From contig NGBS01000356.1 in NCBI GenBank assembly GCA_002245135.1, forward strand, positions 1 through 34,932: a DNA stretch of 34,932 bases, in the 5' to 3' direction. The position numbers were made by a program, and so were the translations under genes. Under the pieces are notes generated by a model. It did no database searches. It was not told the origin of the DNA and was given only the letters and a program-made list of their open reading frames with translations. Position 1 is the stretch's first letter. Each line of letters starts with the position of its first letter. Shown piece after piece: positions 15,399 through 25,500 of this stretch. Origin of the DNA: Proteromonas lacertae (Eukaryota).

Positions 15399-16176
15399 AT
15401 GAGTTCAAATATCGATAATGGATCTAATTTTATCACATTAGATGATAGAGATATTACTTATTTAACTGTAAAAGGATGGTGTAATGAAGCTGAACCAAAT
15501 AAACTGAGTACATACGAAATAATAAAAAATGATAAAGGAATTGTCAATTTATTTGATACTATTTTGCACAATTTAAGCATGATTTCGAAATACCAGTTGA
15601 TGTTAAGTAGATATATGTATAACTTATATTATTTATTTAATTATATAGGTACAAAGGTGATTTTCAAAAATTAATTAAGGCAATTAAGAAATGTGCATGT
15701 AAAGAAAAGAAGAAAGAAAGATTATCATCATTGAGCAATGTAGTAGGTAAATTTATACTCAGCATTAAATACAGGCCTAATTATCGAAAAACTATAGTAT
15801 ATCTAATTATCATATATAATTTAGGTTGACAGAAGATTAGATTTTAGTATATGTGATATGTTCGAGCTTATAAAATCTAACGCAATAGAATTCGGAGACG
15901 ATGACACACCGTATAATGCAATTAGTGAATTAATTATTGAAGATGGTAGTATTAGTTACAATTATAGTATATATTATTTATTTTTATCTCATAGTTCCTG
16001 TCAATGAATGGAATAAACAGTTTAATTCCATGATGAACCAAATGATTAAAGATGTTATGAACCAAATGATTAAAGATGTTATGAACCAAATGATTAAAGA
16101 TGTTATGAACCAAATGATTAAAGATGTTGTAAATGAATATGAAATATTACATCAAGTGATATATGTCGATTATTAA
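15399..16176 (+). CDS. Four-exon hypothetical protein (exons 15399-15616, 15649-15796, 15825-15966, 15995-16176)
   Basis: Removing three GTATA...TAG introns (32, 28 and 28 nt) gives one uninterrupted frame: ..LSRYM|YKGDFQK..YRKTI|VDRRLDF..SYNY|IPVNEWNK.. Confidence 0.8.
15617..15648 (+). other. Tiny intron, 32 nt
   Basis: GTATAACTTATATTATTTATTTAATTATATAG; removal restores frame. Confidence 0.78.
15797..15824 (+). other. Tiny intron, 28 nt
   Basis: GTATATCTAATTATCATATATAATTTAG; removal restores frame. Confidence 0.78.
15967..15994 (+). other. Tiny intron, 28 nt
   Basis: GTATATATTATTTATTTTTATCTCATAG; removal restores frame. Confidence 0.78.
16033..16128 (+). repeat. Perfect 24-bp tandem repeat x4, coding (MNQMIKDV)4
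   Basis: ATGAACCAAATGATTAAAGATGTT four times with no spacers. Confidence 0.97.
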
Positions 16177-16276
16177 ATTACAATTATTTGATTAATTAAT
16201 TCTTTAATTGATATAATATTGTTCATTACTTCCTTTCATTGTTTGTGGGGGTTGTATAAACAACATAAAAAGTATT

Positions 16277-16352
16277 TGCAAAAAAAAAGGGTTCTCATAT
16301 CCTAATCACAAATCGAATTTGTGATTAGGGTATGAGAGCCCTTTTTTTTGTA
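16277..16352 (+). repeat. Long hairpin (~35-bp stem, CGA loop)
   Basis: CAAAAAAAAAGGGTTCTCATATCCTAATCACAAAT-CGA-ATTTGTGATTAGGGTATGAGAGCCCTTTTTTTTG. Substitutions between arms are G-U pairs on the + strand. Confidence 0.93.
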
Positions 16353-16593
16353 TAGATAGAAAGAGAACAACATAAGAAAACGAATGGTATCATTTTTATT
16401 ACTCAAATTCAATTTCTTTTATCAAAATACACTATAGGGAAATAGCACACATTGAAACGGATATTTTTTTGAATCAAAAACACATATAGGGAAATGGAAC
16501 ACTGTTCTATTTCCCTTTATTATTCATTATTATTATATTCCAAAAGAAGCTAAAGATATAATATGGTTCTCATCATCAAATATCAAAGCACCT

Positions 16594-16893
16594 TTGGTAA
16601 TAAATTATGGCCAGGCTGTAGAAGATAGATATAGCGTTGGTTGTCCTACAATTTCACCTATTCCCAACCATGGATTTTACGAGATCTTCATTCCATCAAG
16701 ATACAAACCAATTATTGTATCTACAATTGATAAGGAGTTTTTATTACACAATGTGTTGTATCTTGCAAGAGGTCAAACAAAAACAGAGAAGAATCAAAAA
16801 GTAATTAATGCAAAGACAATTGTTGCTCCACCCAGAAAACAAGAAAACAGCTATGATGTTGCTTGGTTGTTAGAACAGCTTAAAATTAATTAA
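16594..16893 (+). CDS. Hypothetical protein (5' end unresolved; frame open from 16456)
   Basis: Open frame convergent with integrase B; no ATG within the open stretch. Confidence 0.45.
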   Translation: MVINYGQAVEDRYSVGCPTISPIPNHGFYEIFIPSRYKPIIVSTIDKEFLLHNVLYLARGQTKTEKNQKVINAKTIVAPPRKQENSYDVAWLLEQLKIN

Positions 16894-16897
16894 TTAA

Positions 16898-18190
16898 TTA
16901 CACAATTGTATTATCACCTTTTCTGATTCGAGGTCTTTCCAAAATATGTCTGAAATTTGTTTCAGGATCCCTTCTAGCTACTAATTGAAGTTCATAGTGC
17001 TTAAACCTATATCGAGACACATCTTCATCCCAATTTCCATTTGTATCTCCTAACATATAAGAGTATCTGTTCTTCTTTATAATACGATATATCTTATCTG
17101 ACCAATAAGTGTTTTTATCCATAGGTCTTCTTCTCTCTTTAAATCGAACTAAATCTCCTACTTGAAAATGAACTTTTAATTTTTGTTCATTATTAAAATT
17201 GTATTTAATTGATTCCATTAACATTCTGTTTTGTAGTTTAGGACTATTGTATACTTCATTAGGTGTAAAATCTCTCAAACTTGATAATGGTTTGTTGTTA
17301 TAGTCATTCACAGCTTGTTGAACAATATCATTGAAACGTGCTAACCACTTTTGATCGATGATTTCTCTTCTGTCCCGTCGATCAATATTAGCTTGAAACT
17401 CTGGTGCTTCTATTCCTAAGTCTATCAAGTGTTTATATAATAGTTTCTTTATTACACTTACAGATTTATCTAATATGGCTTCTATTCTATGTTCATTAGG
17501 TGCTTTTTGATAGAATGTTATTCCTTCCTTATCACAGAACTCTTTAACTACACTAAAACCACTTTCTAAATCAGCTAAAATACTTACAACACGTCTTTTT
17601 GATACTATTTCAGAACCATCTTCATTTGTTTTAAAATACCATGCATTAAAAGCTCTCATTATATCTTCAGCTTTATTGCTTGACATTGGTATCACCCATG
17701 CTTTTCTAGAGTTTATTTCTATTATATATAAATGATATAATTGAGGTAAGAAAAAGACAATATCTAATTGAAAATAGCCTGGTTTCTTAACAGTTGCAAA
17801 AGGTAAATCTTTATTGTATTTGAAATCAACTACTTGACGACCTGGTTTACGTCTAAGATACTCTCTAACAACATCATAAGGAGGTGGAACTTCATTCTTT
17901 CCAATAGCTTCTTGAGTTAATTTAATAAACTGTTTTTCACTTAAATAATAATACTGTTCATAAAGTTTATCTAAATATTCACTATACTGGTCGATTTGTC
18001 TTGACATTTCATCATCATCATACGGATCCGCTCTTGTAAAATTCTGTAATGGCGGTGGTGCATTGTTAAAATTGCTCGTAAGGTTTGATTGGTTTGTTTG
18101 ATTAACAATCTTATATCCTGGTGGTAGTTCTTGAGTTGCATTTGCATCTGACTTAGTGTAAGGCTGATTATAATAAGAATTAGTAAGCAT
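16898..18190 (-). CDS. Retroviral-type (rve) integrase, copy B
   Basis: PGYFQLDIVFF, ILADLESGF, ILDKSVSVIKK, YNNKP..TPNEV and FQVGDLVR. Clearly homologous to copy A along most of its length. Confidence 0.88.
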   Translation of the reverse strand: MLTNSYYNQPYTKSDANATQELPPGYKIVNQTNQSNLTSNFNNAPPPLQNFTRADPYDDDEMSRQIDQYSEYLDKLYEQYYYLSEKQFIKLTQEAIGKNEVPPPYDVVREYLRRKPGRQVVDFKYNKDLPFATVKKPGYFQLDIVFFLPQLYHLYIIEINSRKAWVIPMSSNKAEDIMRAFNAWYFKTNEDGSEIVSKRRVVSILADLESGFSVVKEFCDKEGITFYQKAPNEHRIEAILDKSVSVIKKLLYKHLIDLGIEAPEFQANIDRRDRREIIDQKWLARFNDIVQQAVNDYNNKPLSSLRDFTPNEVYNSPKLQNRMLMESIKYNFNNEQKLKVHFQVGDLVRFKERRRPMDKNTYWSDKIYRIIKKNRYSYMLGDTNGNWDEDVSRYRFKHYELQLVARRDPETNFRHILERPRIRKGDNTIV

Positions 18191-18301
18191 AAGAAGAAAA
18201 ACACAAAAGTAAAGGCATACACAAATATATTGAATATATCCATTTTATTCTAATTAATGCTATTTTCATCAATATTAATAACATTATTATTATTATTATT
18301 A

Positions 18302-23879: not shown

Positions 23880-23955
23880 TTCTTTTTTTTCACTTCCTTA
23901 CTTAGGGAAAGTGAAGTCGATCACTTTTCTCTAGGTAAATAAGTGAAAAAAAGAA
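23880..23955 (+). repeat. Long imperfect hairpin, loop AGTCGA
   Basis: TTCTTTTTTTTCACTT-CC-TTACTTA-GGGAAAGTGA / TCACTTTTCT-C-TAGGTAA-AT-AAGTGAAAAAAAGAA, with G-U pairs on the + strand. Confidence 0.8.
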
Positions 23956-24042
23956 AGGGAAAGTGAAAACGAGTCTTAGGTGGTGTATATGGCCTTCCTA
24001 AGCTTTATATCAGTCTCTATAACATAATTGAACAAATGTTTA

Positions 24043-24106
24043 CAACGGACGGCAGTTACACCGTCAGTTATGTAACTGACATGTAACGGATTCATAACGA
24101 CCGTTA
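24043..24106. promoter_or_regulatory. Cluster of six YAACKG (Myb-consensus) hexamers
   Basis: CAACGG 24043, CAGTTA 24053, CAGTTA 24065, TAACTG 24073, TAACGG 24084, CCGTTA 24101; near-match TAACGA 24095. Confidence 0.6.
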
Positions 24107-24178
24107 AAACCATAGTACAAATCAATGGTTATTGAATAAAATGAAAAATAAGAAAAATGAAACGAATATATGAATTTT

Positions 24179-24221
24179 AGCCTCGGGTCTAGTGTCAAGC
24201 CTCTGGGTCTAACGTCAAGCC
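24179..24221 (+). repeat. Imperfect ~20-bp GC-rich tandem duplication
   Basis: AGCCTCGGGTCTAGTGTCA followed by AGCCTCTGGGTCTAACGTCA and AGCC. Confidence 0.8.
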
Positions 24222-24255
24222 ATTTTGAGTCTGTAGCCCTTAATATATATTATTA

Positions 24256-25500
24256 TTATCCTACACTATAAACTGGAATATCTCGCAAATCCACACCTTC
24301 AAATTCTAATGCTTTATTCTTTTTACTAAACATTATTTCTAAATGATTCTTTTCTTTACCAATATCTGTTAATAAACAAGAATGAATAAGTGGATATTCT
24401 GATTTATCTTTTATTTTTAATCCAAATAATATTCCATTATATTTATATCCAATTGACATTTTCATTTTTTCACTCTTTACTGTAATTTCACATTTATAAA
24501 ATCTCCCTATTTTACTTATAGGAGTCAATTCTATATTATTGTTTTCTTTAGCATCTAACAGTAAGTTTTCATTATGGAATATTATATCCCATTTATCTGT
24601 GTGAAGTAATATTGATTCTTCTTCTATATTATTTGGGATTATGTAAAATGATATTTCTATTTCTTCTGTATATATATATATATACTAAATATCAAACACT
24701 TTGTCAATGAATCTCTAACTATATTCCATGTAATTTCTGCATTATAAGCTAATAGAAAATCATTCTTCCAATAACATTCTTCATCATTACAAAACAGAAG
24801 ATTCACTTTCATTATTTTATCCTATTACAACAGTTATATATGTATGTATATATACATCTTTATTTCTATAATAATAATAATCATTCAGTTGATATGCTGA
24901 TATTTCTCTTTCTGTTATTTTTATTTTTTTGATATTTACTTTCTTATCACTATAATGAATATGTAACAACTTCTCATCGTTAACATATATCCCACTTATG
25001 CCATTATCTATATTTGTTGAACGAAAACTTGCTTCTTTTGATAATTTATTTGTTTTGAACTTGTCAATAATCATTTTATAACTGTTTGGTGATAAATAAT
25101 AAGATAAATGTGAAATAATTGATCCTATAACAGCCTTTAAAGAAAAACTAATTGTTCCATCCTTTCGCGAGATTTCTATTCTAAAATATATTATTATTTT
25201 ACTTCAATACACATAATTTAAAAAATCAATTAACTCAAACAATAAACAATGAGGAAATGGGAAAGGAGATTGCAGTAGAAAGTCAATCATAGCATAATAT
25301 TTCTCAGTCTTTGGAATATTCTCATATTTCATATTTTGTAACTCCTTAATCTTCCTATAGACATATTTACTAACAGATTTAACATATATTTCAAATAATT
25401 CTATTTGCTTATATTCTTCACACTTCATAATTAAATTTTCAAAGTAATCCAGTAATTTTTCTTCATCTTCTGATTTTGTATATTCCAAAACCTTTTCCAA
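24256..25500 (-). CDS. Multi-exon hypothetical protein joining three ORF-track ORFs (5' exon unresolved)
   Basis: Introns 25181-25210 (30 nt, GTATT..TAG), 24822-24855 (34 nt, GTATA..TAG) and a less certain 24666-24685 (20 nt, GTATA..CAG) give one continuous frame. Confidence 0.65.

Follow-up and report, generated by a model that had tools for sequence, protein, structure and literature searches.

In nematode Mavericks the core genes (PolB, integrase and protease) are intronless, and the intron-bearing genes that neighbour them are read as cargo derived from the host (10.1101/2022.07.12.499685). Introns have also been reported from other elements and viruses. Those of cryptophyte Polinton-like viruses (PLVs) are group I introns (PMC10120064, PMC12220804); dinoflagellate eupolintoviruses carry introners, that is, spliceosomal introns present as repeated transposon copies (PMC12166617); and in Punuivirus, an endogenous giant virus, 61 of 506 genes have host-like spliceosomal introns that were missed in the first annotation (10.64898/2026.10.09.758095). 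A large survey of endogenous viruses assumed that these lack introns and called genes with prokaryotic tools (PMC10120064). Here we describe a stretch of 34,932 nucleotides (nt; hereafter the window), contig NGBS01000356.1 of the Proteromonas lacertae assembly GCA_002245135.1, forward strand, in which decaying Polinton-like elements lie beside two genes, A and B, whose sequence suggests that they are interrupted by six tiny spliceosomal introns.

The window resembles nematode Mavericks in combining an intronless core with intron-bearing neighbours. It differs from them in that the introns are 20–34 nt long, the polymerases are broken, no terminal inverted repeats, capsid gene or ATPase gene were found, cargo status and mobility are putative, and one candidate intron-bearing gene lies between the genes for a protein-primed DNA polymerase B (pPolB) and an integrase. 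With protist Polintons/Mavericks and PLVs (PMC10120064, PMC12220804) it shares pPolB, a retroviral-type integrase, a candidate protease-like domain, small basic proteins and AT-richness. Unlike the group I introns of cryptophyte PLVs, the segments described here are of spliceosomal type and confined to non-core genes. Dinoflagellate eupolintoviruses offer the parallel of spliceosomal introns inside Polinton-like elements, although our segments are unrelated to each other. The introns of Punuivirus are RNA-validated, average 176 bp and belong to a giant virus, whereas ours are predicted from DNA and belong to a small element. Because the division into core and accessory genes has already been described for nematode Mavericks, our finding extends rather than overturns the known picture. 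The finding is real but mostly a known pattern, and its main value lies in a lesson for annotation and in a lead toward a histone H3-tail gene. No paper on 20–34 nt introns in Polinton genes turned up in the literature searched, which did not cover supplements.

GT-AG introns of about 21–34 nt, combined with the standard genetic code, are described for Blastocystis (PMC12129017), the ciliate Nyctotherus ovalis (PMC2633312) and Trichomonas, where they are type B (PMC12316389). A sequence-only reading of this DNA had likened its introns to those of Blastocystis, and the likeness depends on the isolate. In human subtypes almost all introns are exactly 30 bp and G+C is 39–55% (PMC12129017), whereas the window has 26–35% G+C throughout and its segments vary from 20 to 34 nt. 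Tortoise isolates, with 21–23% G+C and variable introns (PMC12129017), and Nyctotherus, with introns of 21–29 nt and the standard code (PMC2633312), come close. Trichomonas has few introns, with the branch site fused to the 3' end, and no fused site is seen in the window's segments.

Candidate introns in genes A and B

The sequence-only reading had pointed to eight intron-like segments with the form GTAT...TAG and lengths of 28–34 nt. All eight are present (Table 1), with a GTAT start and 9–21% G+C; seven have the proposed size and ends, but 24666–24685 is 20 nt long and ends in CAG. The three segments at 15.6–16.0 kb lie on the plus strand and the other five on the minus strand. In all six segments of genes A and B the GT..AG ends fall on the sense strand, as they do in two further loci discussed below, C and H. 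Based on the sequence, these six segments, three in each gene, are well supported as likely spliceosomal introns. What counts is their position and not their form. The window contains 35 low-GC GTAT..YAG segments of 18–40 nt, and form alone is no evidence because 23 of them sit inside long open reading frames (ORFs), 16 antisense and 7 sense.

Removing introns A1, A2 and A3 in turn lengthens the frame of gene A, counted from its first Met, from 91 to 132, 182 and finally 229 codons. In all four of its exons the best codon phase is the predicted phase, and the last exon holds an in-frame 24-nt repeat in four copies. The read-through frame of exon 1 had no homologue among proteins of 50–160 residues or in Atlas; for the other exons the scan covered Pfam. 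Gene A starts 70 nt after an intronless RRM gene and precedes a strong hairpin, a setting that fits both cargo at the edge of an element and a small host island.

For gene B, removal of the three segments yields 391 stop-free codons, and here too the predicted phase is the best codon phase in four of four exons. The sequence-only reading had credited B1 and B2, together with the three segments of gene A, with restoring frames, and all five do so; 24666–24685, which it had listed as sharing only their form, also restores the gene B frame. Homology adds to this evidence. When we compared the frame holding exon 2 with 1.84 billion representatives, three matches were returned, of which P0041, a 135-residue frame from a short contig, reached an expectation value (E) of 1e-28 at 53% identity; P0042 and P0043 were set aside as repeat-driven. 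The similarity to P0041 spans exon 2 exactly, from the B1 acceptor to the B2 donor, and residues of AT-rich codons follow on either side. Judged from its amino acids, the leading residues of P0041 would fit an intron of 34 nt at this place, where that of gene B measures 30 nt. This difference fits an intron, because a length change that is not a multiple of three bases between conserved exons is how introns behave. Counting P0041, P0044 and P0045–P0050, homologues of gene B are 53–70% identical to it; those of exon 4 form two clusters, at 58% and 70%, one of which has six members on 1–7 contigs each. P0041, P0044 and P0045 are short pieces that match single exons, which bears out the prediction that ORF-only annotation breaks such genes. 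None of the homologues found spans the B3 junction or the junctions of genes A or H.

Homologues of gene B extend about 45–65 residues beyond the end of similarity near 24271, so gene B is truncated at its 3' end. It has no Met in its first 29 codons, its coding G+C (0.24) is below that of every other frame tabulated, and it lies between two non-coding flanks, one of which contains a hairpin. Judged by its sequence, gene B probably derives from a longer host gene, of which a fragment was caught between two element insertions. Exon 4 is beta-rich, and its Atlas matches, which score 0.92–0.93 but share few features with it, suggest a concanavalin A/LamG-like sandwich. The model of this exon is poor (predicted local distance difference test, pLDDT, 44), there was no PDB match at E 0.001 and no plasmid match, and we treat a LamG-like fold as a lead only. 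An AT-rich stretch (24241–24268, minus strand), lying at the gene's 3' end where homologue similarity stops, may be a further intron-like segment or an insertion junction. An 18-nt GTATGA..TAG segment just 5' of the first exon (25512–25529, minus strand) may end another intron.

To estimate chance, we scanned the window for places where deletion of 18–40 nt of low G+C could join two frames of 40 or more codons. There were 82 such places, and GTAT..YAG ends occurred at seven. Among 1536 composition-matched pairs of ends, GTAT/TAG ranked first, with 7 loci against a mean of 0.79, and six of the seven GTAT..YAG loci make up two chains of three consecutive frame-restoring segments. A scan anchored at ATG codons gave 9 loci for GTAT/TAG, against a mean of 1.09 and a maximum of 4 for 120 random pairs. 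As an internal control we took 20 intervals in which the pPolB, protease and RRM frames are broken, locating them by eye on alignments. None of the 20 contains a low-GC GTAT..YAG segment (four contain GTAT..YAG at 30–52% G+C), whereas all six breaks in genes A and B carry the motif. We also trained a codon-phase model on 13 frames from elsewhere in the window; for every one of the 12 exons in A, B, C and H it favoured the spliced phase, a result that is partly circular, as open frames score well. A G+C of 15% or less, as in five of the six A and B segments, occurs in only 1.8% of 1821 coding windows of 30 nt. The spliced lengths of 249 and 391 codons exceed shuffle maxima of 77 and 81, a weak null on which we do not rely because shuffling destroys the exons too.

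Table 1. Positions of the candidate introns, genes and other features within the 34,932-nt window.
Feature	Position	Strand	Description
pPolB copy 1	46–4796	+	PF03175 E 1.6e-9; pieces in shifting frames
Gene H candidate	4844–5117	+	81 codons if 4879–4906 is spliced; starts MARTK; flanked by pPolB copy 1 and integrase copy 1
Intron candidate H1	4879–4906	+	28 nt, phase 2, GTAT..TAG, 18% G+C
Integrase copy 1	5178–6467	+	Intact, intronless; 55% identical to copy 2
ORF with C-terminal Ulp1/adenain-like protease domain	6501–10810 (ORF 6716–10810)	-	1364 codons; PF02902
Locus C segment	11389–11421	-	Ambiguous: 33-nt intron fusing 11946–11422 to 11388–10864, or stop plus spacer between two genes
Two small Arg/Gly-rich basic ORFs	12742–13525	-	Open reading frames
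RRM-domain gene	14486–15328	+	Intronless; PF00076 on either side of an in-frame TGA at 14744 inside the RRM
Gene A	15399–16176	+	Predicted exons 15399–15616, 15649–15796, 15825–15966, 15995–16176; 229 codons
Predicted intron A1	15617–15648	+	32 nt, phase 2
Predicted intron A2	15797–15824	+	28 nt, phase 0
Predicted intron A3	15967–15994	+	28 nt, phase 1; 19-nt alternative 15949–15967 keeps the frame too
Hairpin just past gene A	16281–16349		33-bp arms; z -13; possible element junction
Integrase copy 2	16898–18190	-	Intact, intronless, retroviral-type fold
pPolB copy 2	18302–23094	-	PF03175 E 3.6e-17
Intron-like segment	23160–23187	-	Frame already open here; pPolB copy 2 has its first Met downstream
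Imperfect hairpin between pPolB copy 2 and gene B	23879–23957		z -4; possible element end
Gene B	24256–25515	-	Predicted exons 25515–25211, 25180–24856, 24821–24686, 24665–24256; 391 stop-free codons
Predicted intron B3	24666–24685	-	20 nt, mostly TA microsatellite, phase 1; 29-nt version 24657–24685 works too
Predicted intron B2	24822–24855	-	34 nt, phase 0; P0041 similarity stops at donor
Predicted intron B1	25181–25210	-	30 nt, phase 2, contains in-frame TGA; P0041 similarity starts at acceptor
Integrase copy 3	28814–29974	-	Intronless; PF00665 E 0.0064; 34% identical to copy 2
pPolB copy 3	30961–33339	+	PF03175 E 1.2e-12; about 400 central residues gone, frameshifted

The Polinton-like elements and their intronless core genes

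Long standard-code frames cover the window almost completely. A reassigned TGA, prompted by in-frame TGAs at 14744, at 16453 and in B1, was rejected: TGT/TGC and TGG are in use all through the long frames, and TGA is the stop codon of several genes. The region had been called Polinton-like from its sequence, and three modules, each with a pPolB and a retroviral-type integrase, support that assignment. All three pPolB genes (PF03175, protein-primed DNA polymerase B) are broken. Copy 1 has about a dozen frameshifts, all in its 5' two thirds, and copy 2 has a single frameshift near 21560 and a single stop at 19049–19051. The closest database match of copy 2 is 35% identical and named from the coral Oculina patagonica; the remaining five matches are metagenomic proteins. 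Scanning metagenomes with pPolB gave three loci at 26–27% identity, one of which, L002, has an unbroken pPolB frame of 1215 codons. IMG/VR scans with integrase 2, exon 4 of gene B and pPolB 1 gave no confirmed relative.

The three integrase copies are homologous to one another. A sequence search of PDB found no match to them, and the fold search alone succeeded: the predicted model of copy 2 matches retroviral intasome structures with a best E of 1.2e-11. Element copies 1 and 2 are in facing orientation, and their longest blocks are about 71–75% complementary. The protease-like domain matches PF02902 at E 0.00097, under the curated cut-off, has its last part in another frame (6752–6501) and has no protease match in PDB. 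Its ORF contains hydrophobic stretches, and at 1364 codons it is unusually long for a Polinton protease gene. The two small basic ORFs presumably resemble viral core proteins.

We found no packaging ATPase: the sole Walker A-like match in six frames is antisense to pPolB, and the gene could lie beyond the window. The ORFs scanned had no Pfam or PHROG match to a capsid, in a scan without PLV-specific profiles. No long terminal repeats, terminal inverted repeats or target-site duplication were found in the window; its longest inverted matches pair the diverged copies of pPolB and integrase with each other (71–75%), and the others are local hairpins. What the window contains are nested, decaying Polinton-like elements of undefined extent, which work like a Polinton but are not classed as a complete member. 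Introns of the kind predicted in genes A and B are absent from the frames of pPolB, integrase and protease. The sequence-only reading had the element acquiring host-style introns or intron-bearing host genes; six segments do behave as such introns, but intronisation of the element as such is not supported, with none at the 20 breaks checked in its genes.

Locus C and gene H

Removing 11389–11421 at locus C fuses two frames into one of 349 codons. A stop of the upstream frame falls within the segment, an ATG belonging to the downstream frame follows it after 4 nt, and use of the nearer AG (11392) yields an immediate stop. This segment is ambiguous, since two adjacent genes fit equally well, and the claim that it restores a frame is less secure than for those of genes A and B. 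Removing 23160–23187 restores no frame, and it is at most an intron of the 5' untranslated region (UTR). Another 33-nt GTAT..TAG segment with 12% G+C (27443–27475, plus strand) ends where ORF 27476–28675 opens, 30 nt before its Met, and is a possible 5' UTR intron.

The ATG-anchored scan also returned H1, which joins an 11-codon start to a frame of 69 codons and is the sole intron candidate clearly inside an element core. We compared the spliced product with an H3 profile built from 27 distinct sequences out of 48 IMG/VR loci, 32 of which gave 125–145 residues. Its alignment runs through the junction, colinear with H3 positions 1–59, and of 1645 frames it scores best, though with an E of only 0.48. 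For one pairwise score, 7 of 2000 full shuffles did as well, as did 63 of 2000 with shuffling confined to exon 2; exon 2 by itself gave no significant score (259 of 2000), and neither exon had a histone match in Pfam or PDB. Equivalents of K9 and K27 and the histone fold are absent, and the alignment stops at H3 position 59. There is no counterpart of H between the pPolB and integrase of copy 2, and a pattern scan of IMG/VR for the gene H start gave 0 matches.

Gene H could belong to a spliced accessory module in a Polinton-like lineage, one that includes a decoy of the H3 tail encoded between the polymerase and integrase genes, a proposal that we consider doubtful. Such a decoy would keep the ARTK start and the K36–K37 region but not K9, K27 or the histone fold, and by titrating the host's chromatin readers or diverting them it would protect the element from silencing. 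If this were true, a 28-nt intron would hide the decoy from ORF-based surveys. Viral histones and histone mimics (PMC9145170) offer the precedent of a viral gene with H3-like sequence; gene H, in contrast, has only 81 codons and lacks the fold and the K9/K27 equivalents. The words 'polinton' and 'virophage' are absent from the text of that review, and the literature searched contained no report of an H3-tail gene in a Polinton. The sequence support is weak, and the chromatin decoy is a lead rather than a result; the possible H3-tail gene is also the part most worth following.

Competing explanations

Any explanation starts from the same observations: the segments, their frame chains and codon phases, the homologue boundaries in gene B, and the intronless, decaying cores. 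We favour, as the probable reading of the sequence, that the segments interrupting genes A and B are spliceosomal introns of the ordinary kind, from a host whose introns are short, with gene B a host remnant, genes A and H accessory, and the Polinton-like polymerase and integrase genes free of introns. The host spliceosome, presumably of U2 type, would remove the segments from RNA polymerase II transcripts. Gene B would be what remains of a longer host gene cut off at both sides by element insertions, and genes A and H would be accessory genes of the elements, captured with host-type introns or gaining them later. Core replication genes would stay intronless while host-derived or accessory genes carry introns, and the small intron size would be the host norm, needing no special explanation. 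In hosts with introns of 20–35 nt, gene calling that assumes no introns shreds accessory genes into pieces of 50–140 codons, which matches the database homologues of gene B.

Several points weigh against this reading. The evidence for the three introns of gene A consists of frame, composition and phase. By eye, no branch-point motif is common to the segments, and CTAAT occurs in only two. In the chance scan the runner-up among arbitrary end pairs reached 6 loci against 7, which makes the motif count alone a modest excess, and frameshifts from decay or assembly error abound in the window, as in pPolB copy 1. Because the element ends were not found, host island or cargo is in addition a matter of inference for both genes. 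The abundance of frameshifts, together with microsatellites such as the TA repeat that makes up B3, would also suit a different account, in which the segments are chance matches in AT-rich DNA and A and B are pseudogenes or miscalled; the many segments of the same form inside long ORFs lend themselves to it as well. A chance reading is likely for 23160–23187 and an even bet for 11389–11421. For genes A and B we give it only a slim probability, since the motif is found at every one of their breaks and at none of those in the element genes, and the P0041 similarity is lost exactly at both splice sites.

Genes A, B, C and H might instead all be stable genes of the element family, forming an accessory module that uses host splicing as latent giant viruses do while the replication genes remain intronless. 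Within copy 1, H is flanked by the pPolB and integrase genes, while the cluster of protease and basic-protein genes encloses C; A is packed close behind the RRM gene, has a third-position G+C of 0.25, like copies 1 and 2, and has the motif AAAAACCGCGAA in common with another element intergenic region. The latency genes of Punuivirus, moreover, bear host-like introns (10.64898/2026.10.09.758095). What makes this account unlikely is that B ends earlier than its homologues, is the most G+C-poor of the coding frames tabulated and is flanked on both sides by non-coding DNA, that copy 2 lacks H at the equivalent place, that C is ambiguous, and that no second copy of A, B, C or H was seen beside a pPolB. 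Removal at the level of DNA, as with the internally eliminated sequences of ciliates, or recent insertion of introners would account for the segments in yet another way, which we regard as very improbable. Their length and A+T content do fit short eliminated sequences. Introners, for their part, have been reported from dinoflagellate Polinton-like elements (PMC12166617). Only one of 11 segments tested, however, has a TA repeat at its junction, the interiors of eight segments are no more alike than shuffles (0.417 versus 0.408 +/- 0.011), and the GT-AG polarity matches the coding strand in every case.

Other features of the window

Exact-sequence look-up in a protein collection found 0 of 12 window ORFs, and there were no Rfam matches in the window. 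RRM genes such as the one upstream of gene A are not typical of the Polinton core. The hairpins at 16281–16349 and 23879–23957 bracket the integrase–pPolB module of copy 2; smaller palindromes occur at 16488–16516 and 23270–23300, and a 20-nt tandem repeat, richer in G+C than its surroundings, lies near the presumed right end of copy 2 (24179–24221). Between gene A and integrase copy 2, a 145-codon ORF without any Met (16384–16893, plus strand) is preceded by an ATG and then a 51-nt GTAT..TAG segment, whose removal enters the frame but meets the TGA at 16453; this region is overlapped by a repeat of 38 nt that recurs at a spacing of 52 nt. A Gln-rich frame without an early Met (13562–13882, plus strand) lies 40 nt from a divergent gene and may mark a junction of nested elements. 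Between integrase 3 and pPolB 3 lies a beta-rich ORF of 258 codons (30042–30818, minus strand) that has no family match and, by eye, a possible OB-fold. The motif AAACG(A/G)ATAT recurs in intergenic spots at 6484, 13886, 16455 and 24160 and is possibly a terminator or regulatory signal.

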